This document shows, in pieces, positions 2,128 to 35,433 of a stretch of 35,548 nt of DNA. Source of the stretch: a virus (taxonomy: Duplodnaviria > Caudoviricetes); IMG/VR virus record IMGVR_UViG_3300010376_000087, positions 1 through 35,548 of that record; one strand, written 5' to 3'. A program made the position numbers and the translations under genes. The notes under the pieces were generated by a model. That model was not told the DNA's origin. It did not search any database and was given only the letters and a program-made list of their open reading frames with translations. Position 1 is the first letter of the stretch. Every line of letters starts with the position of its first letter.

Positions 2128-2442
2128 GCGCCCACTGCGCTCGGCCATTTTCTAAGGCCCACTGCGCCCTCGCTGCCCAGGCCCAGCTTCCAGCCCTGCG
2201 TCTGCCGAAATGCAGCCCAGGCCTGCGAGGCGAGCCTGGGCAGCCTCTGTACGGCCACCCAGCAGAACGCGGCAGGTCCCGTATTGCGGAACCTTTGGCG
2301 TGCCACCTCTGGTCGTACGTATGTTCAACCTGCCACCTAAGCCTTCCGCAGGACGCGAATGGATGGTTATGAGTAGGGCTGGCATCGCCTCCAAAGCGCA
2401 CCCTGTACGCCATTGTGGGCTGCGCCTGATAGACGTCTATCA
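2128..2442. repeat. ~300-bp diverged intergenic repeat, copy A
   Basis: Shares GCGCCCACTGCGCTC, AAGGCCCACTGCG, a 46-bp core (2298-2343), GGGCTGGCATCGCC and CCCTGTACGCC with 9695-10017; ends in the palindrome. Confidence 0.85.
2427..2442. repeat. 16-bp palindrome copy 2
   Basis: Exact copy, 9 nt upstream of the tRNA-like element. Confidence 0.97.
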
Positions 2443-2451
2443 TCAGGCTGA

Positions 2452-2524
2452 CCGGCCTTAGCTCAATGGACAGAGCGTCGGCCCACGAAGCCGAAGGATC
2501 CTCGTTCAAGTCGGGGAGGCCGGA
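2452..2524 (+). tRNA. tRNA-Arg(ACG)-like gene (C33 instead of U33, no encoded CCA)
   Basis: Acceptor CCGGCCT/AGGCCGG; D arm GCTC-AATGGACA-GAGC; anticodon arm TCGGC-CCACGAA-GCCGA; T arm CCTCG-TTCAAGT-CGGGG; A20 Arg identity element; A15:U48. Confidence 0.85.
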
Positions 2525-2526
2525 CG

Positions 2527-3984
2527 ATGCCTGGCTTCACGTCACCCGCCATCCTGTTCCTCAACAGCTGGGATTCCCCCGAACGGGCCTTCTGCAAACA
2601 GGTCTTCGGCGCCCTGCCCAGCCGCGGCTACACCCGCTACGTCGAGCCGTGCGCGGGCGCGTTCGCCATGCCGATGGTGGCCGAGAACTCGGGCTGGAAG
2701 CCCGCGGCCATGGAGTGCAGCGACACCAGCCTCTACTCGGCCATCGTGGGCGACCTGCTGGCAGGCAACGATCTGGCCGCACTGGACGTGCGGGTCGACG
2801 GCGATCCCGTCGAGCTACCAGAGGAGCCGCTGGACCAGGCCGCCCACCTGCTGTGGGTCCAGCTGCTGTGCCGGACCCAGGCCCGCCCCGAGGTGGACTA
2901 CTGGAAGACGCTGATCGACGACCTCACCGACAACCGCCAGACCCACGTCGACTCCATCACCAAGCGGCTGGCCGGGCTGATGGAACGGCTGGCCGGGCTG
3001 CACTACGAGCCGCTCGATATGTGGGACCACATGGAGCGCGTGGTCAACGACCCCCACACCATCGTCAACTGCAACCCGCCCACCTACTTCAAGGGCTTCG
3101 AGCGGTTCTTCGACACCAAGGACCGCCTGACCTGGAACGTGCCCGACTACCAGTTCTTCGACCCGGCCACCGGCGTCGACCGCCTCGTACGTATGTTCGA
3201 TGGGGCGCCCGCCCTCATGCTGTGCCTGCAGCAGAAGCCGCCGGGCCAGGCCTGCCACCCGACGCCGGTCTTCGCCCGCGACCTCAGCCTGGGCCAGTAC
3301 GTCTACCTCATCAGCAACCGGCCCGACGAGGTCTTCGCCATCACGGGCGGGCCGAAGGTCAGCCGCCACCAGGTCCCCGACCTGACGCCCGGCAACCTGC
3401 CGGTCATGCCCAACGACTACGCCATCACCGCTGGCTCGGTCGTCGAAGCGGTGCCGGTCAAGCAGCCGGTCGCCGATTACTACCGCGCCCTGTGGATGCA
3501 CCGCCTGATCGGCGACCCCGGCGGCAACAACCTGCTGCTACTGGTCGACAAGCAGGTGGCGGGCATCATCGGCTACAGCCTGGCCAGCCTGTCCAAGCCC
3601 TACACGTCCGACAGCCGCTGGTCCAAGCACGCCATCCTGCGCTTCGCCATCGGGGCGCCCCATAAGACCTTGCGCGTAACCCGGCTGGCCACCATGGTCG
3701 CCCTACAGCGGTCGACGCTGGAACTGACCGCCACTCCGGCCACGGCCATGTTCGTCCAGGCCAGCGAGGGCATCGTCACCGTCGAGTACACCCGCCGCGA
3801 CGAGTCAAAAGGCCTGCGCGGGCTGATGACCCGCATCGAGAAGCGCAAGAAGCCACCGGACGGCTTCCAGCTGATCTACGCGGCTGACTGGCAGGACCAC
3901 GACTACGGTCGGGTCCTCACCGACTTTCTGGCCAAGGAGGCGTCGTGGGGCAAAGCCCGAGCAGCGGCAAAGCAACCGGCGTAG
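2527..3984 (+). CDS. DNA modification protein: Dam-like adenine methyltransferase fold plus a C-terminal domain (possibly GNAT/Mom-like)
   Basis: YVEPCAGAFAM resembles SAM-binding motif I; NCNPPTY resembles the (D/N)PPY catalytic motif; extra C-terminal region containing LLLLVDKQVAGIIGY. Confidence 0.65.
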   Translation: MPGFTSPAILFLNSWDSPERAFCKQVFGALPSRGYTRYVEPCAGAFAMPMVAENSGWKPAAMECSDTSLYSAIVGDLLAGNDLAALDVRVDGDPVELPEEPLDQAAHLLWVQLLCRTQARPEVDYWKTLIDDLTDNRQTHVDSITKRLAGLMERLAGLHYEPLDMWDHMERVVNDPHTIVNCNPPTYFKGFERFFDTKDRLTWNVPDYQFFDPATGVDRLVRMFDGAPALMLCLQQKPPGQACHPTPVFARDLSLGQYVYLISNRPDEVFAITGGPKVSRHQVPDLTPGNLPVMPNDYAITAGSVVEAVPVKQPVADYYRALWMHRLIGDPGGNNLLLLVDKQVAGIIGYSLASLSKPYTSDSRWSKHAILRFAIGAPHKTLRVTRLATMVALQRSTLELTATPATAMFVQASEGIVTVEYTRRDESKGLRGLMTRIEKRKKPPDGFQLIYAADWQDHDYGRVLTDFLAKEASWGKARAAAKQPA

Positions 3985-4822: not shown

Positions 4823-6283
4823 CTAGAAAATCCGGAACTCGCCCAGAACCACCCGCTCCGCATGATCGAAAGCCCACAGGGCCGTCGTGGCAGCGGTCAG
4901 CGGACTGATCGACACCGTCGACTGGCGGCGGCCCCAGGCCCAGGCGTCACCCAGCGACCGGCGGACCGCAGCTGCCGCAGCTGCGTCGAGCGCCGCGTTG
5001 GGCCGGTAGCGGACCGTCAACTCGTCACCCATGAAGGCCTCCAGCAGCCCGGCGCAGGCGGCCACGTACTCCTTCGTCTTGACCGGCATCAACTCCAGGC
5101 CCAACCGGGTGCAGCGGTCGGCCACGTCCAGGGCCGGACCGGCGGCGTCGTAGCTGATGGCCACCGGCTGCAGCTTGTCCCGCAGCTGCAGCAGCCGCTC
5201 CGGCACCCAGCCCGACGTGGGCCGGTAGTCGGCCACCTCCAGCCGGGCGTTCCCACCGCCGTCCCGCCAGGCCGCCACGATGCAGGCGTCGGTGCGATCC
5301 AGCGCCACGTCGAAGCTGAGCGAGCAGTCCCCGATCGGCGGCAGGGGCTGGTCGGGCGAGGCCGCAGCCATCCAGGCCGTCCGCGGGATGACCCGAGCAG
5401 CTGTGTGAATCCAGCGGTTTCCGTAGGCCCGGCTGAACTCCTCGTTACCCATCTCGTCCAGCGCCGCATACATGGCGGGGGCGAAGATCGTCCGGCCATA
5501 CGCCGGGTGGTACGTGGGCCAGCTGGCCTCCTGCGTCGGGTCCAGGTGGTCGGGGCAACTCCACTCGAAGAACGCCCGGCCCTCCTGGCGGCCTGCTTCT
5601 ACATCTGCCCGTCCTCCCTCGACGCTGCCCAGCCACCACGTAGAGCTATCGTCGCCCGCCGTAGATACCTTCCAGACCTGGGCGTTGGCCTTCGTGGCCT
5701 GGGTCGGGACGATGGCCTGGTCGATAGCCCGCCCTCTGGCCAGGTCGAACACCCAGCTTTCGTCGATGACGACCAGGTCGGTGTGCTTCGAGTGCAGCGC
5801 ATCGGGCTGGGGCGGGAACGGTCGGATCATCCCGCCCGACTGCAGCCACTTGACGTGCTCCGATCCGCTGGCCCGCCGCAGTTCGAGCAGATCGGCCAGC
5901 GGGTCCAGCTGGGGCCAGTGTTCGTTGACCAGCCAGTCGACCGCGTCCTTGCCGGACTGCATTGTGTACCAGACCCGCGCCCGCTTCAGCGTCAGCGCCC
6001 GGTGGTCCATCGTCACCCCGAACAGCCAGGTCTTGCCCGACTGCCGGGGCACGGTCACGTCGACGACCCGGTACACGAAGCGGCCATCGGCGTCGACCTC
6101 CAGGGCCACATCGGCCACCAGCCGCTGCCAGCCCATCAGCGGCAGGCCCAGCACCTGCGCCAGCCGGGCCACTGCCGGACCGTAGGTCTTGCGGCTGGGG
6201 TTGCGCTTGGTCGCCCAACGCGGCGGCGGATATCCGTCGAAATCGGCTGCCTTCGGCGTCAGGGTCGGGGCGATCGCTGCCAT
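4823..6283 (-). CDS. terL: Terminase large subunit
   Basis: LMGWQ (Q motif), VPRQSGKT Walker A, VVIDES Walker B, STAG coupling motif, SFDVA RNase H-like nuclease; start ATG 6283 inferred. Confidence 0.92.
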   Translation of the reverse strand: MAAIAPTLTPKAADFDGYPPPRWATKRNPSRKTYGPAVARLAQVLGLPLMGWQRLVADVALEVDADGRFVYRVVDVTVPRQSGKTWLFGVTMDHRALTLKRARVWYTMQSGKDAVDWLVNEHWPQLDPLADLLELRRASGSEHVKWLQSGGMIRPFPPQPDALHSKHTDLVVIDESWVFDLARGRAIDQAIVPTQATKANAQVWKVSTAGDDSSTWWLGSVEGGRADVEAGRQEGRAFFEWSCPDHLDPTQEASWPTYHPAYGRTIFAPAMYAALDEMGNEEFSRAYGNRWIHTAARVIPRTAWMAAASPDQPLPPIGDCSLSFDVALDRTDACIVAAWRDGGGNARLEVADYRPTSGWVPERLLQLRDKLQPVAISYDAAGPALDVADRCTRLGLELMPVKTKEYVAACAGLLEAFMGDELTVRYRPNAALDAAAAAAVRRSLGDAWAWGRRQSTVSISPLTAATTALWAFDHAERVVLGEFRIF

Positions 6284-6299
6284 TAGCCCGCCGCTCGTT

Positions 6300-6617
6300 T
6301 CCAAACGCCTCCAGAAAGGAGAGTTGGGAGGTTGATGGGTGGTGACGACCGCTGCCTCCAAAAAATGCCTACGCGGCTGCTAGCTGCTGCCACTGCTACC
6401 ACCGCTGCCACTGCCACGCTGCGGCCACCACGCCAACGCCAACGCGAACGCCCACCTCCCATCGATCGAAACGTCTGCCAACTACTACTGCTGTGGGCAG
6501 CACAGCCATCTGCTGTGTGCGGCACCTCCACATCAGCAGCAGCCTCCTCCTCAGCTGTGGGCTGACAGCAACTGCTACAGCCAACAACTACTGCTGCTGA
6601 CCTACCATCCATCCTCA
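6300..6617. other. Low-complexity intergenic region, candidate packaging (cos/pac) region
   Basis: A7 tract at about 6360, CTG/CCA/CTA triplet-like repeats, CAACTACTACTGCTG-like direct repeats; lies between divergent terL and HNH. Confidence 0.35.
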
Positions 6618-6914
6618 GTGCCCAGTCTCGATCCTCGTCTGGCCTCCAAGGAGTGGCAGCGATTACGGAAACTGATCCTGCAACGGGACAACTTCGTATG
6701 TCAGATCCACTCTCATTACTGCCTCGGTCTGGCCACCGAAGTCGACCATATCGACCCACCTCTCGATGGCGGATCGTTCTGGGATCCAGCCAACCTTCGA
6801 GCCAGCTGCAGGCCATGTAACGCTCGCAGAGGCGGCCAATATCGCGCTCAAAGAGCGGAGCGTTCCAGCTTCGGCTATCGGCAGCCGATCGTGCCCATGG
6901 AGACACGTCTGTAA
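6618..6914 (+). CDS. HNH endonuclease (HK97 gp74-like terminase cofactor)
   Basis: WQRLRKLILQRDNFVC...ATEVDHI...NLRASCRPCN. Confidence 0.9.
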   Translation: MPSLDPRLASKEWQRLRKLILQRDNFVCQIHSHYCLGLATEVDHIDPPLDGGSFWDPANLRASCRPCNARRGGQYRAQRAERSSFGYRQPIVPMETRL

Positions 6915-7403
6915 CTAGCTGGGCTGGGCTAGCTCTGCTGCCAGCCGATCCCAGGCGTCCTCTGTCTCTGCCTTGGCCCCCTGCAGTTCGGCCACACTGA
7001 CGATCAGCGTCTGCCGTTCCAGCTTGGCGCCCAGGTCCAGCAGCCGGGCTGCCACCACCAGCGGTATCTCACTGGCCTCCACGCCGTTGAACGAGGCCAG
7101 GCCTTTCATCAGCAGAGCGCGTCCAGCCCGGCGGTGGTTGGCGTGCATCGTTCGGATGGCGTCCAGCCGCTCCTGATCGTCCACGCGATAGCACTCGTCG
7201 TCCCAGGCCTCAGCCCGATCCCACCAGTCCCACTTGGCTGCCCACATCCGGACCGATCGGCTGGTGACGTGCGCCGTGGCCGCCACATCGTCCAGCCGCC
7301 GTTGCGACGGCGCGGTGTCGCGGAGCGTTCTAAACGCCGCGTAGGCCCGACTCGGTTCGCCGTGCTGGCGTTCCCACCGGGCTGGACTGCTGGCCTCAAC
7401 CAT
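6915..7403 (-). CDS. terS: Terminase small subunit (HTH type)
   Basis: WERQHGEPSRAYAAFR...WAAKWDWWDRAEAWD pattern typical of TerS-like proteins; adjacent to HNH/terL; start ATG 7403 inferred. Confidence 0.7.
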   Translation of the reverse strand: MVEASSPARWERQHGEPSRAYAAFRTLRDTAPSQRRLDDVAATAHVTSRSVRMWAAKWDWWDRAEAWDDECYRVDDQERLDAIRTMHANHRRAGRALLMKGLASFNGVEASEIPLVVAARLLDLGAKLERQTLIVSVAELQGAKAETEDAWDRLAAELAQPS

Positions 7404-7446
7404 GACGCTCAGTATGCCAGGCCGACTTCCGCTCATTTCCGCCCCG

Positions 7447-7462
7447 TGATAGACGTCTATCA
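7447..7462. repeat. 16-bp palindrome copy 4
   Basis: Exact copy, right boundary of the inverted terminase block, between divergent genes. Confidence 0.97.
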
Positions 7463-7485
7463 GGCCGCGTGGCAAACTGACTGCC

Positions 7486-7719
7486 ATGCGACTCACTGCG
7501 ACTCAGCGCAACAAGCTGCCGCGGAGCGCCTTCGTCTACCACGGCGGACCTCGGTCCAACTGGCGCTATCCGGTGCCGACCAAAGCCCAGGCTCGCAGGG
7601 CGGGCATCTCCGAAACCCAGCGCAAATCCATCCACGGGGCCGCCGTCAGCTACGGCGCCCGCAAGTCCACCCGCGGATCCAAGGCCACCATCAAGCGGGT
7701 CGTCAGCCGCCGCAAGTAG
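7486..7719 (+). CDS. Small basic protein (DUF6582-like)
   Basis: LTATQRNKLPRSAF...RYPVP motif; very Arg/Lys rich. Confidence 0.6.
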   Translation: MRLTATQRNKLPRSAFVYHGGPRSNWRYPVPTKAQARRAGISETQRKSIHGAAVSYGARKSTRGSKATIKRVVSRRK

Positions 7720-31134: not shown

Positions 31135-31150
31135 TGATAGACGTCTATCA
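31135..31150. repeat. 16-bp palindrome copy 13
   Basis: Exact copy; supplies the TGA stop of the DUF488-like gene. Confidence 0.97.
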
Positions 31151-31621
31151 ACAGCCGCCGTACGGGTCCTGCCGGGCCGGGGGCAGTTCGGGTATCTCGA
31201 TCTGCCAGCGGCTCCAGAACCACTCGGCCAGCCACCGCCGATGGCAGCACTCGCCGCGGTGGACGTTCTCGTAGCAGAGCAGCACCAGCCGCCGCCCGGC
31301 GTGATTGGTGACCAGCTGGGCCAGACGGCCCAGCTGAGTGGCGGGATCGCTGTCCATCCGGGCGTAGTAGCTGGCCTCCCCGACCGCATCGTCCTCCTCG
31401 CGGAACTCCGAGTAGGACGGCTGCCACCACTTCGGCCCCATGACCAGGCCGGTGGACTGGTTCCACCAGCGGTACTTTTCGGGGCCGCCACGGGTGATGC
31501 GGACGCCGACGCCAAGCTCCGGGCGGAAGTCGATGTACCGCCCGGTCACCACGCTGGCGTGGCGGACCGCCTCCAGGTCCGCCGCCGCCAGCAGGCTGTG
31601 CGTGCTGTGTAGCTCGGTCAT
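31148..31621 (-). CDS. DUF488-like protein
   Basis: LVLLCYE...CHRRWLAEW motif; ATGA overlap with the vWA gene. Confidence 0.7.
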   Translation of the reverse strand: MTELHSTHSLLAAADLEAVRHASVVTGRYIDFRPELGVGVRITRGGPEKYRWWNQSTGLVMGPKWWQPSYSEFREEDDAVGEASYYARMDSDPATQLGRLAQLVTNHAGRRLVLLCYENVHRGECCHRRWLAEWFWSRWQIEIPELPPARQDPYGGC

Positions 31622-33588
31622 AGCCACGACCTCATCCGCTCCGCAGCCACCCGGCGGAACAGCCGGGCCAGTTCCTCGGCCCGGTCGATGTGAGCCGCGA
31701 ACTGGCAGCCGTGCTTGTCGTCGCCAGCGCCCCGGCCCAGCAGCGCCATCACCGTCGTCACGCCCATCTGGCCCATGGCCTCGATGACCTCGGCGGCGTC
31801 ATCGTGCTGCTCCCACTTCATCGACCCACCGGGACCGCGGACCAGCTTGCTGGTGCCGAACCACTCGCCATCGCTGAGCACGATCAGCAGGCGGTTCTTG
31901 GCGTCGCTGCTGGTCAGCACCCGCAGCGATTCCAGCAGCGCCGACTTCGGCTGCGTCCCGCCCATGGCGGACGGGATGAACATGCGGTCGTCGGGCCGCT
32001 GGCCCGGCTCGGCCAACAGCCGGTGCGGACCGGACTCGTAGCAGATGACCGTGCAACGGCCCTCCAGGTCGTCGACGGCGTGGCGGATGGCCCACGCCGC
32101 CCGGCCCAGCGCCTTCATCTGGCTGCCCATGCTGCCGCTGACATCCAGCAGCACCATGACCTCCATCTCGCTGGCGTCCATCATGCCCGGCTCGTAGCGA
32201 TCGAACAGTTCGTCCGCGTCGCAGTACGGATCGACCAGCCGCCGGACGTTGAGCCGACCACTCTCCACCCGCTTCAGCCACCCCGGCTCCGTCTCGTCCT
32301 TGATGTCCAGCAGGGCATCGCTGACTTCGGCGCGGAGCCGCCGGGCCGCATCGTCCGCCGGGATCCAGCGACCGATGGGCCGCTCGCCCTCGGCGTCCTC
32401 GCCGCCACCACGCCCGTAGTCCAGGGCGTCCAGCACGGAGCCAAGCTCCTCGCTGGCCTGGGCGTCCTCGTCGATCTGGCCCTTGGCCGCATCCCGCAAC
32501 TTCTCGCGGATGTCCTTCTGGCTGATCGGCTTGGACCCAGGCCGGTTGCCAGCCCCGCCGCCGGGACTGCCGGAGTCGCCACCCTGGCCCTGCTGTCCGT
32601 CCGACCTGGTGGTTGGGGTCTTGCCAGCCTCGTCGCCGGGCTGCTGACCCTCATCGGCGTCGCCCTTCTGGCTGTCGCCGGGACCGGAGCCGCTGCCCTG
32701 GTCGCCGTCGCCACCATCATCGCCCTCCTCGGGGCCGGAGCCACCGTCGCTGTCGCTGTCGGCGTCAGGATCGGCAGCCGGATCGCTGGCCACCGGAGGG
32801 CCGTCGCCGGGGTTGCCGTCGATGTTCGGCTCGCCACCCACCGACACGAAGCCACCGCAGCCGCCGTTGCCGGTGGGCTGCTGGTCGTCGAACAGCGCCA
32901 CCAGATCCTGCAGGATCTGCCAGGCCTCGTCGGCGTCGGACTCGCCGGGATCCATCAGCAGCTGGTACTCGCCCACCATCCGCGTCACCTCGTCGGTGAA
33001 ACGCTGGCCCTGGCGGAACACCATCCGGGCCTTGGCCGCTGACCGCACCTCGTCGGGCAGCCACGTCCGCCCGGCCAGTAGCAGCCAGGCGTTTGCATCG
33101 TCGCTGACCAGGTGGTGCGACAGGGCCGCGGTCAGGTAGCCGCGCCACGGCCCGAACTTGGCCAGCACCAGCCGCTCCTGCCGCTGATCCTCAACGATGT
33201 TGTGCATGTTGGCGATGCCGGGCAGGAACGACCGCTCCGACTCCAGCACGCGGAACATCAGCGTGCTGTCCCGCCGGGGGCTGAACAGGACGTGGCCCAG
33301 TTCGTGAGCGTTCGTGCCCAGCCACACGGCCACGTCCACCTTCTGCCAGGGCGTGGGCATCTTCGCCCAGTTGAAGCTGACCTTGTCGCCCTCCAACGTG
33401 GTCCACGCTGGCGCCGGGCCGCTGGCCTCGACGGTCACGGTGTCCATGTCGATCGACAGGATCTGATCGGTGAGCCGCAACTCGCGGGCCAGGCGCTGGA
33501 GCCTGACCAACTCACGCGGCGTGAGCTTGGCATCGTCGAGGTCCAGGTTGACCTCGGTCCTGCCACGCCTCAGGTTTGCATCGGACAT
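31618..33588 (-). CDS. HEXXH metallopeptidase-like plus vWA domain protein (CobT-like MoxR partner)
   Basis: AHELGH, NIVEDQRQE, acidic Gly/Asp linker, SGRLN, LLDVSGSM MIDAS, GGT, LSDG. Confidence 0.85.
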   Translation of the reverse strand: MSDANLRRGRTEVNLDLDDAKLTPRELVRLQRLARELRLTDQILSIDMDTVTVEASGPAPAWTTLEGDKVSFNWAKMPTPWQKVDVAVWLGTNAHELGHVLFSPRRDSTLMFRVLESERSFLPGIANMHNIVEDQRQERLVLAKFGPWRGYLTAALSHHLVSDDANAWLLLAGRTWLPDEVRSAAKARMVFRQGQRFTDEVTRMVGEYQLLMDPGESDADEAWQILQDLVALFDDQQPTGNGGCGGFVSVGGEPNIDGNPGDGPPVASDPAADPDADSDSDGGSGPEEGDDGGDGDQGSGSGPGDSQKGDADEGQQPGDEAGKTPTTRSDGQQGQGGDSGSPGGGAGNRPGSKPISQKDIREKLRDAAKGQIDEDAQASEELGSVLDALDYGRGGGEDAEGERPIGRWIPADDAARRLRAEVSDALLDIKDETEPGWLKRVESGRLNVRRLVDPYCDADELFDRYEPGMMDASEMEVMVLLDVSGSMGSQMKALGRAAWAIRHAVDDLEGRCTVICYESGPHRLLAEPGQRPDDRMFIPSAMGGTQPKSALLESLRVLTSSDAKNRLLIVLSDGEWFGTSKLVRGPGGSMKWEQHDDAAEVIEAMGQMGVTTVMALLGRGAGDDKHGCQFAAHIDRAEELARLFRRVAAERMRSWL

Positions 33589-33607
33589 TTTCTGATTTCC
33601 TTTCGGG

Positions 33608-33623
33608 TGATAGACGTCTATCA
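33608..33623. repeat. 16-bp palindrome copy 14
   Basis: Exact copy; supplies the TGA stop of the AAA+ gene. Confidence 0.97.
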
Positions 33624-34547
33624 GGCCGCGATACCAAGCTCGCGGGCGATCTGATCGCGGACGGCTTCGAGCGCCCGGCTGACCGGACCCTCCTCGTCGT
33701 CGTTGAAGTGGTTGACGAAGAAGTACTCGGCCATGCCCATGTCGAGGTCGACGGCGTGCTCGACGAACTCCATCAACATGTTCGTGCTGACGGGAGTGCG
33801 AATCTCGGCCAGCGACCTCAGGTTGTAGGCCACGTCCAGCAGCTGCGGCGACCTGCCGCAGGGCAGCTGCTCCTCCACGGAGCGGTCGTAGCCCCACTTG
33901 AAGGGCTTGGGGAGCCGGTTGCCAAACGCCTCGTTCAGCCGGACCGTCCCCTGGTACTTCGGGTTGTACGCCACGCCGAACAGCGTCGGCTGGATGACCG
34001 GGCGGCCATTCTTCGGCATCCCACCGCGACCGGCCCGGATGACCTCACCGTTCTCGGGCACCGACATGGCCCGCATCACCGACAGCAACCCGTGGTAGCT
34101 GGCCGTGATCCGCTGGTGGGCCAGGTTGGCCTCGTCGATCAGGTTGGTGCCGCCGTAGCGGACGATCAGCGTCATGTCGCCGTCGATGAAGCTGACGCTG
34201 CCATCGGGGCCGATCGACGTGCGGCCAATGATGACGCCGGGGTCCATGGCCCCGTTGCACTCCACGACGTTGAACGGCAGCCGCCGGTAGGCCGAGTAGG
34301 CCCGGAACAACGTCGTCTTCGACGACCCGGTCGGACCGGCCAGGGCCACGTTCGACCGCTTCATCACGGCGTAGTCGAGAAGGTCGAAGTCGTACCAGCC
34401 GCGGATCGTCCGGTGGACGTACGCCTGGGCCAGCCGCTCGTCGGGGATCATGGCCTCGACCCTGGCCCGGTCGTGTTCGGGCACCAGGTTCAAGTCGAAG
34501 ACCGGAGCCGGGAACCGGCTGGTCTGGGGGGCAGTAGCAGTGGCCAT
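33621..34547 (-). CDS. MoxR/CbbQ/CobS-type AAA+ ATPase
   Basis: GPTGSSKT Walker A (variant), LIDEAN Walker B, YNPKYQG, LNEAFGNR, STNML. Confidence 0.88.
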   Translation of the reverse strand: MATATAPQTSRFPAPVFDLNLVPEHDRARVEAMIPDERLAQAYVHRTIRGWYDFDLLDYAVMKRSNVALAGPTGSSKTTLFRAYSAYRRLPFNVVECNGAMDPGVIIGRTSIGPDGSVSFIDGDMTLIVRYGGTNLIDEANLAHQRITASYHGLLSVMRAMSVPENGEVIRAGRGGMPKNGRPVIQPTLFGVAYNPKYQGTVRLNEAFGNRLPKPFKWGYDRSVEEQLPCGRSPQLLDVAYNLRSLAEIRTPVSTNMLMEFVEHAVDLDMGMAEYFFVNHFNDDEEGPVSRALEAVRDQIARELGIAA

Positions 34548-34680
34548 CAGGCCACCCTCCTTTCGGGTAGGCCGCGACCGGACTGGCCGCGGGATGGGAT
34601 GGAGGACATCCGCACCGGCCAGCCGCCCAGCCCCGGTGAGGGGACCAGGCGACTGAGCCGCTGAGGACAGCCGGTGGGGA

Positions 34681-35433
34681 TCACAGATCCCGCAGATCAC
34701 CTGCCACGACTTCGGCCTCGCCGTCAGCCTTGGCGGCTGGCGTGGCGACCGGAGCAGCCGGAGCAGCAACAGCGGGGCCGCTGCCCTTCTTGGCTGCGCT
34801 GGCCTTCTGGCTGGCCTTGGCCCGCAGCTTCTCGACGTGGGCCAGGACCTTGCTGAGGCCGCTGTGCAACTCGTCCAGTTCGTTGCTGGGCGTGGTGCCG
34901 GGAATCGACTGGATCAGCTTCTGGCCGCCGCTGCGGATGTCGGTGAGGACGTCGGCGAGCGTGGTGGCCGCCGCCGACGCCGCCGCACGGGCGGCGGGCG
35001 TGGTGGGGGCTGGCTTGCCCTGCTGGATGGCCACCGCCTTGCGGACGGCGGCGACGGTGACCTTGTCGGCCCCGCCCACGGTCTTGACGACCGCCTCCAG
35101 CAACTTCACCCCGGCGTCGATCGTCGGGAGCTTTTCGACTTCACGGTGGGCCGAGAAGCTGACACCGGCAATGCGCTTGGCCTTCGGCCAGTTCTTCGCG
35201 CTGTCCCGGTAGAGCCGGAGCGTGTTGGCCGACAGGTTGCCGAGGACCCCGGCAGCCATGGCCTTCTCAACGACCTGGTCGAAATCGTTGGTGCCCGGAG
35301 GATTGGTGACCAGGAGGGCGTCGGCCAGCGACCAACGGTCCTCCTCGGAGTTGATCGACCGCATGGCGTCGATCACATCGTCCAGCTGGGCCGCGCTGGG
35401 GCCAGCCGGGGCGGTGGTTGTTGCGGTGGGCAT
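34681..35433 (-). CDS. Putative DNA-binding protein (LmbU-like motif)
   Basis: GAAAGG SD; RWSLAD...TLRLY...RIAGVSFSAHREV resembles the LSFxHHxEV motif; Ala/Lys-rich tail. Confidence 0.55.
   Translation of the reverse strand: MPTATTTAPAGPSAAQLDDVIDAMRSINSEEDRWSLADALLVTNPPGTNDFDQVVEKAMAAGVLGNLSANTLRLYRDSAKNWPKAKRIAGVSFSAHREVEKLPTIDAGVKLLEAVVKTVGGADKVTVAAVRKAVAIQQGKPAPTTPAARAAASAAATTLADVLTDIRSGGQKLIQSIPGTTPSNELDELHSGLSKVLAHVEKLRAKASQKASAAKKGSGPAVAAPAAPVATPAAKADGEAEVVAGDLRDL

Follow-up and report, generated by a model that had tools for sequence, protein, structure and literature searches.

We consider it somewhat more likely than not, by analogy with the Mom protein of phage Mu, that a tRNA-Arg(ACG)-like gene in the 35,548-nt stretch of phage DNA analysed here (the window) supplies an RNA that can be charged but does not decode, and that donates arginine for a Mom-like aminoacylation of the phage DNA. 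The downstream gene encodes a fusion of a Dam-like and a GNAT domain, and it is the GNAT domain, absent from the initial annotation of this DNA, that points to the donor role. The window (35.5 kb, 68% GC) looks like a tailed phage, and named relatives of the phage suggest an actinobacterial host. The features discussed are collected in Table 1.

Table 1. Features of the tRNA-enzyme cassette and its surroundings (window coordinates)
Feature	Position	Strand	Basis or remark
16-bp palindrome	2427..2442	.	One of 15 window copies; ends 9 nt before the tRNA
Palindrome copies (starts)	688, 2427, 4778, 7447, 10002, 14028, 17706, 20386, 22526, 24640, 26994, 29511, 31135, 33608, 35528		
tRNA-Arg(ACG)-like gene, predicted private aminoacyl donor	2452..2525	+	ARAGORN, Rfam, folding, family features
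Parts of the tRNA-like gene	A20 = 2470; C33 = 2484; anticodon 2485-2487; A73 = 2524; C74 = 2525		
Acceptor tag of the tRNA-like gene			C1-G72/C2-G71/G3-C70
SD-like GGGGAGG, in T-stem and acceptor 3' strand	2513..2519	+	7 nt before ATG; anti-SD pairing -10.5 kcal/mol
485-aa fusion protein: Dam-like PF22555 (residues 11-284) and GNAT PF22559 (residues 304-471)	2527..3984	+	Pfam, AlphaFold2 model
ParB-like gene that overlaps the fusion gene at its stop codon	3981..4730	+	Homologue downstream in 46/48 representative loci
Terminase-like genes and HNH, beyond ParB	4823..7496	-	On the opposite strand, unlike most relatives, where the strand is the same
DUF488-family gene, displaced in the window	31148..31627	-	In relatives usually upstream of the cassette

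The initial annotation described a cloverleaf running to 2524, followed by C2525-G2526 and an ATG at 2527, and this was borne out. ARAGORN called a tRNA-Arg(ACG) at 2452-2525 with a score of 115.6, its sole call in the window at the default threshold; 27 further calls at a relaxed threshold all scored 93.7 or less. Rfam RF00005 matched a 600-nt stretch over model positions 1-71 with the full cloverleaf (57.9 bits, E 6e-12; gathering cut-off 29 bits), and the empty result of the whole-window gathering scan was a filter miss. Both the MFE and the centroid structure were the cloverleaf (z -2.25), which spans 2452-2524, with A2524 as discriminator and the anticodon loop at 2483-2489. The ArgRS determinants A20 (A2470), C35 (C2486) and G36 (G2487) are present. 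The initial annotation was also right that position 33 is C (C2484) instead of the U33 of translating tRNA-Arg; it lies in a 7-nt loop and is the sole decoding defect, A37 (a purine), G18G19 and the T-loop being retained. The lack of an encoded CCA end, likewise correctly described, turned out not to be unusual: the gene encodes just C74 of it, a common situation in Streptomyces, and 59 of 68 tRNA genes of a control Streptomyces genome lack CCA. A scan of 2100-2600 for sigma-70 promoters and terminators found none and no sigma-70 consensus. A non-coding block of about 65 nt (window 2310-2375, L001 approximately 2765-2832) is near-identical between the window and its closest relative, more so than its flanks, and might be a promoter or a small RNA.

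Homologous loci were drawn from viral, genome and metagenome collections and from two named phages, giving 198 loci. A start was called in 195; two truncated at the 5' end and an end fragment of phage ValentiniPuff were left out. The first set comprised 44 clusters at 90% identity, the window being one; 41 were evaluable and three had too little upstream DNA. ARAGORN found a same-strand upstream tRNA beginning with CCG in 38 of the 41, and a covariance model built from 55 copies recovered those of L098 and L109, so that 40 clusters have such a tRNA-like gene. The exception, L107, yielded no tRNA-like element even with the family model. Among ARAGORN hits scoring at least 100 in the 195 loci, 158 of 159 were upstream, on the same strand and with a CCG start; in L190, which has short upstream DNA, the copy is cut by the contig edge. 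A set of distant homologues (78 of 80 loci with a start, forming 19 clusters, of which seven Lys clusters overlap the first set) contained a tRNA-like gene in every cluster, upstream in 18 and after the gene in one. Sixteen of these begin with CCG, a start that is absent from three copies of the Glu/Asp clade. With Gly, Glu and Asp added by this set, the tRNA types linked to the fusion family are Arg, Lys, Pro, Gly, Glu and Asp.

The tRNA lies 2-4 nt from the gene in four clusters, representing two lineages, and 14-1,872 nt away in the other 34 of 38. The linkage implied by the initial annotation is thus conserved, whereas the abutment is not. An attachment-site remnant was ruled out, since the tRNA gene sits within a cassette, typically in the order DUF488 gene, tRNA, fusion gene. 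The cultured lytic Microbacterium phage ValentiniPuff (MH825712), tabulated with 0 tRNAs (PMC7302621, in extract), carries an unannotated tRNA-like gene (L004:1855-1927, approximately 62354-62426) with a 6-nt anticodon loop; it precedes gene 1 by 102 nt, an interval that spans the end of the permuted genome. In L055 (1055-2990) and L186, an insert of 1.9-2.1 kb separates the tRNA from the enzyme gene, and one ORF within it has a weak ADP-ribosyltransferase-like match.

The acceptor elements C1-G72, C2-G71 and G3:70 are common to all 65 distinct first-set copies, as is C74, which a separate count gave as 64/64. Among 55 aligned copies, 98% of stem cells were paired and 12 of 16 pairs showed two-sided changes, in a structure excluding the T-stem, which suggests that the tRNA fold is under selection across the family; pairs 1-72 and 2-71 were C-G in 55/55 and 3-70 was G-C in 54/55. 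As a control we used the tRNA genes of two cassette-carrying genomes, 77 from Streptomyces and 69 from Blautia, with two weak hits left out and nine of the Streptomyces-file tRNAs lying on a small contig that looks foreign. In each genome C70-G71-G72 occurred in the linked copy only. The linked copy was also the only tRNA without U33 in Streptomyces (U33 being found in 145 of the 146 control tRNAs) and the only one without the D-loop GG in Blautia.

A20, C35 and U/G36 are bacterial arginine identity determinants (PMC9976931, in extract). In the Arg-type copies, counted here with near-identical copies included, as are the Lys-type ones below, the D-loop reads GGA in 34/36 and the remaining two keep the A, so that an A follows G in 36/36; C35 with G/U36 was found in all 33 parseable loops, and U73 in 33 copies. 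A canonical anticodon loop (7 nt, U33 and purine 37) was found in only 2/36, those of L005 and L125; purine 37 occurred in 13 of 25 7-nt loops, and other copies carry a 6-nt loop (8/36, including L001, the closest relative) or an inserted arm (3/36). The upstream tRNAs of L085, L090 and L095 are 89-nt copies with an extra arm in the anticodon region and intact acceptor and T arms. The Lys-type copies retain the D-loop GG in 6/27 (21/27 lack it) and GGA in 0/27, show a bulge in the T-stem in 24 of the 26 that were parsed and combine a CUU anticodon with A73 in 26/27. Because the determinants and the acceptor end are kept and decoding features are lost, selection appears to serve a synthetase and an acceptor-reading enzyme, not the ribosome.

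These counts bear on two other readings of the RNA. The initial annotation had offered, as an alternative, a tRNA variant resistant to anticodon nucleases; the RNA would then be an altered tRNA-Arg that supplements decoding, or else a decoy for such nucleases. The window copy would suit this, with its 7-nt loop and its intact A37, G18G19 and T-loop, and CGC and CGU make up 175 of the 362 Arg codons in 11 long ORFs. We nevertheless find it highly improbable, because the relatives have the 6-nt loops, inserted arms and scarcity of canonical loops just described, the hosts already own a tRNA-Arg(ACG), and neither the placement beside one gene nor the CCG tag with its invariant acceptor end would be explained. 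Alternatively, the RNA might be an uncharged structural cofactor or scaffold that is bound by its acceptor end, the anticodon being a relic. An invariant acceptor end beside decaying anticodon loops fits this, and it would account for identical GNAT domains occurring with Arg- and Lys-type tRNAs; the selective survival of synthetase determinants (C35 with G/U36, GGA in Arg-type but not Lys-type copies, the Lys-type CUU with A73, and C74 throughout) makes it quite unlikely. The donor reading has points against it as well: Mom makes do with the tRNA of its host, so that this kind of chemistry does not require a private one, and the window tRNA has a single decoding defect, with the loops of L005 and L125 being canonical.

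The initial annotation called the downstream gene a methyltransferase. A Dam-like domain is indeed encoded, but the 485-aa product is a Dam-like/GNAT fusion, which scored 223 bits on PF22555 (DAM-like-phage1) and 105 bits on PF22559 (GNAT-phage-like) against a cut-off of 27. The database name of such proteins is 'putative antirestriction adenine methyltransferase', and the family of Dam-like/GNAT fusions may be one that Iyer et al. (2013, NAR) describe. It is large, with 447 clusters (50% identity) at E<=1e-30. The annotated start at 2527 was upheld: among 56 homologues P7 is invariant and F4 nearly so, and the phrog_7858 match begins at residue 2, which rules out a later start codon. NCBIfam and PADLOC gave nothing for the fusion protein, and a PDB sequence search (query A1) gave spurious V-ATPase matches only.

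The AlphaFold2 model of the fusion (pLDDT 91) matched Dam over residues 8-268 and GNATs over residues 301-457; the full-length model was used for all fold searches, a single-sequence fold of the GNAT domain being unusable (pLDDT 32). The best structural matches of the Dam-like domain were DNA adenine methyltransferases (PDB 2ore: Z 13.1, rmsd 4.5, 199 aligned, by model comparison). Canonical Dam-type N6-adenine methyltransferases have an FxGxG SAM loop and a (D/N)PPY catalytic motif. Here the SAM-binding loop departs from FxGxG, position 46 (the second glycine) being F in 93/97 sequences, and the catalytic motif reads NPPTY, with N in 70/97 and A in 23/97; E40 and D66 are invariant in the 97 sequences. 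Because these Dam motifs are altered, methyltransferase activity of the domain appears doubtful. In 5/48 loci (e.g., L002:993-2171) the cassette is preceded by a gene for SAM synthetase, a weak hint of SAM use. Several homologues of 720-790 aa (P0008, P0029, P0067, P0069 and others) carry an insertion near residue 190, beside NPPTY, which is probably an intein; database sources name a Hint domain.

The GNAT domain aligned with Mom (8bv8) at Z 9.2, rmsd 3.8 and 147 residues, the longest GNAT alignment among the matches listed, and the match ties with those to acetyl-CoA GNATs and protein N-acetyltransferases (Z 8.8-9.6). Foldseek placed Mom at rank 40 (E 0.012) for the fusion model. At the sequence level, the domain matched PF22559 alone at E<=10 and not the Mom family PF25680, on which Mu Mom itself scored 253 bits; an hhalign comparison with Mom, a weak test with a one-sequence Mom template, gave no match (E 0.31).

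Two positions from the invariant T418, residue 420 varies with the tRNA type: E accompanies the Arg type in 22 of 23 proteins, Q the Lys type in 17 of 18, M the Gly type in 5 of 5 and also the Pro type, and C the Glu type in 7 of 9. The pattern is confounded with phylogeny, as each tRNA type is largely one clade and independent events are few. An E at this position would suit an acidic pocket for arginine. L055 and L186 carry Arg-type and Lys-type tRNAs, respectively, yet their GNAT domains are identical and the proteins differ only in residues 16-141; the correspondence of enzyme with amino acid is thus not a strict one. Either the case for such a correspondence is weakened, or the pair suggests that swapping the tRNA changes the mark. 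On the latter view we offer, as less likely than not, a broader proposal: that one enzyme scaffold with a private tagged tRNA (C1-G72/C2-G71/G3-C70) could write amino-acid DNA marks (Arg, Lys, Gly, Glu, Pro, Asp) across a widespread phage family, that the mark could be changed by a tRNA swap alone, as suggested by L055 and L186, and that the window would make an arginine-bearing adenine.

The evidence for DNA as the target comes from two sources, the modelled Dam fold and the gene neighbourhood (Table 1). A DUF488-like gene precedes the cassette in 35/48 loci, and five of six tested were DUF488-type Pfam matches, mostly weak. The displaced DUF488 gene of the window adjoins a pair of AAA (MoxR-like) and vWA genes (31618-34769, minus strand), and L025 carries a second pair, a Dam-like gene without a GNAT match and a ParB gene, directly after the first (5182-7214). 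The acceptor might instead be something other than DNA: the GNAT could use its private tRNA to place arginine on a protein (such as ParB, terminase, or one from the virion or the host), or it could acylate the charged tRNA itself, in the manner of TacT/AtaT-type GNATs. All of the tRNA evidence would fit this just as well, Mom and protein N-acetyltransferases tie as matches of the GNAT fold, and aminoacyl-tRNA protein transferases and tRNA-acylating GNATs exist (PMC13219725, in extract). We regard this as unlikely, because the GNAT is fused to a domain that structurally best matches DNA adenine methyltransferases and the cassette lies beside ParB, DUF488 and terminase genes, ParB-terminase loci being predicted DNA-modification sites (PMC4738411, in extract).

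According to the initial annotation, the tRNA-like element hides the Shine-Dalgarno sequence (SD) of the downstream gene. GGGGAGG does lie inside the T and acceptor stems, as annotated, and pairing of the anti-SD with the 3'-terminal 14 nt of the tRNA has an energy of -5.7 to -10.5 kcal/mol in the four abutting clusters versus -1.1 to -6.9 in the 34 others (p 0.0007, overstated since the four clusters are two lineages). The buried SD is beyond chance in the abutting lineages. The initial annotation read this as possible cis-regulation, in which the fold hides the SD and 3' processing frees a nearly leaderless mRNA, timing the expression of a potentially toxic DNA modifier. That part of the claim which concerns the SD itself stands: it is real, well spaced and recurs in both lineages, L020 keeps GGGAGG despite the resulting acceptor mismatch, and folding of a 150-nt precursor predicts a paired SD (unpaired probability 0.02). 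However, the predicted accessibility varies with the stretch folded (0.47 unpaired for 2450-2545), the identity elements and the CCG tag are left unexplained, and the tRNA is distant in 34 of 38 clusters, and after the gene in one cluster of distant homologues. Because of this distance, and because many of those 34 clusters have a separate SD of their own, translational gating cannot be the reason why the RNA is kept, and cis-regulation as its function is very unlikely. In the window lineage the tRNA has absorbed the ribosome-binding site of the gene, and we think it conceivable, at somewhat less than an even chance, that as a secondary role beside that of donor it couples enzyme translation to tRNA processing. 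Folding of 2450-2600 in the window also gave an alternative, unproven hairpin in which the first codons pair with the 3' strand of the acceptor stem.

The palindrome noted 9 nt upstream is where it was said to be, and it is not unique to the tRNA. Its 15 copies (13 exact, 0 expected) are spaced at 2-4 kb, several within ORFs; other viral contigs also carry several copies (one has 17 loci), and in L005 some 475 nt separate it from the tRNA, to which it is adjacent in L001. A tRNA-specific signal was thus ruled out. In the window and L001 it continues into a hexamer, TATCAT, that stands 8 nt before the tRNA, and it might be an operator over a -10 box. The copies could be parS-like or operator sites, and the proteins that might bind them are ParB-DUF6551 (1195-2127) and a small RHH-like product (813-1010).

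In the mechanism that we propose for the donor, the tRNA and the enzyme gene would be co-transcribed, the tRNA trimmed and its CCA completed by the host. Host ArgRS would charge it via A20, C35 and G36. The GNAT domain would read the C1-G72/C2-G71/G3-C70 tag together with the aminoacyl group, so that it draws on the private tRNA instead of the tRNAs of the host, and the Dam-like domain would bind DNA and present an adenine, probably without normal methyltransferase action, with NTP-dependent assistance from ParB. By analogy with Mom, an adduct derived from arginine would result at N6 of adenine in the phage's own DNA, which might protect it from nucleases or ease its packaging.

If this is true, tRNA-dependent DNA hypermodification would be a large diversifying system, as large as the family itself, reaching beyond the glycine of phage Mu and owning non-translating tRNAs, which would give a function to odd or unannotated phage tRNA genes. 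New DNA bases with arginine or lysine would be predicted, and the enzyme/tRNA pair might be used to place amino acids on DNA. The copy in cultured ValentiniPuff makes the donor claim directly testable. The open-access literature searched covered Mom and general ParB-terminase methylase loci; it contained no description of the cassette, of a linked tRNA or of an arginine-bearing adenine, and the available portions of PMC12839542, PMC12704722, PMC7824862 and PMC7302621 do not describe the cassette. The window protein belongs to both PF22555 and PF22559, and that literature names neither these families nor the linked tRNA.

Among known systems, Mom (PF25680, PDB 8bv8) shares the phage GNAT fold and the chemistry, here predicted, from aminoacyl-tRNA to DNA adenine: with Gly-tRNA as donor it attaches glycine to adenine N6 in double-stranded DNA, likely reads the acceptor end and accepts all host tRNA-Gly isoacceptors (PMC13219725, in extract). 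Unlike Mom, the window enzyme belongs to another Pfam family without a sequence match, is fused to a Dam-like domain, has ParB and DUF488 partners and brings its own tRNA, whose amino acid type varies among relatives (Arg, Lys, Gly, Glu, Pro, Asp). Judged from sequence, the enzyme is not a Mom member; the system would work like Mom. Dam and DpnM of ParB-terminase loci (PMC4738411, in extract) resemble it in the Dam fold (Z 11.5-13.2) and the place beside ParB and terminase, whereas the window protein has F for the second SAM-loop glycine, NPPTY with a variable Asn for DPPY, and a fused GNAT. The non-proteinogenic tRNA-Gly of Staphylococcus aureus, which lacks G18G19 (PMC4052509, in extract), and its Fem transferases, of which FemX reads the 2-71 pair (PMC2655667, in extract), are alike in that synthetase identity is kept, translation features (G18G19, T-stem) are lost and a GNAT-fold transferase reads the acceptor stem. 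The staphylococcal system is chromosomal and uses glycine with peptidoglycan as acceptor; the phage tRNA is linked to its enzyme gene and has DNA as its predicted acceptor, and in the Arg type it is chiefly the anticodon loop that is disabled.
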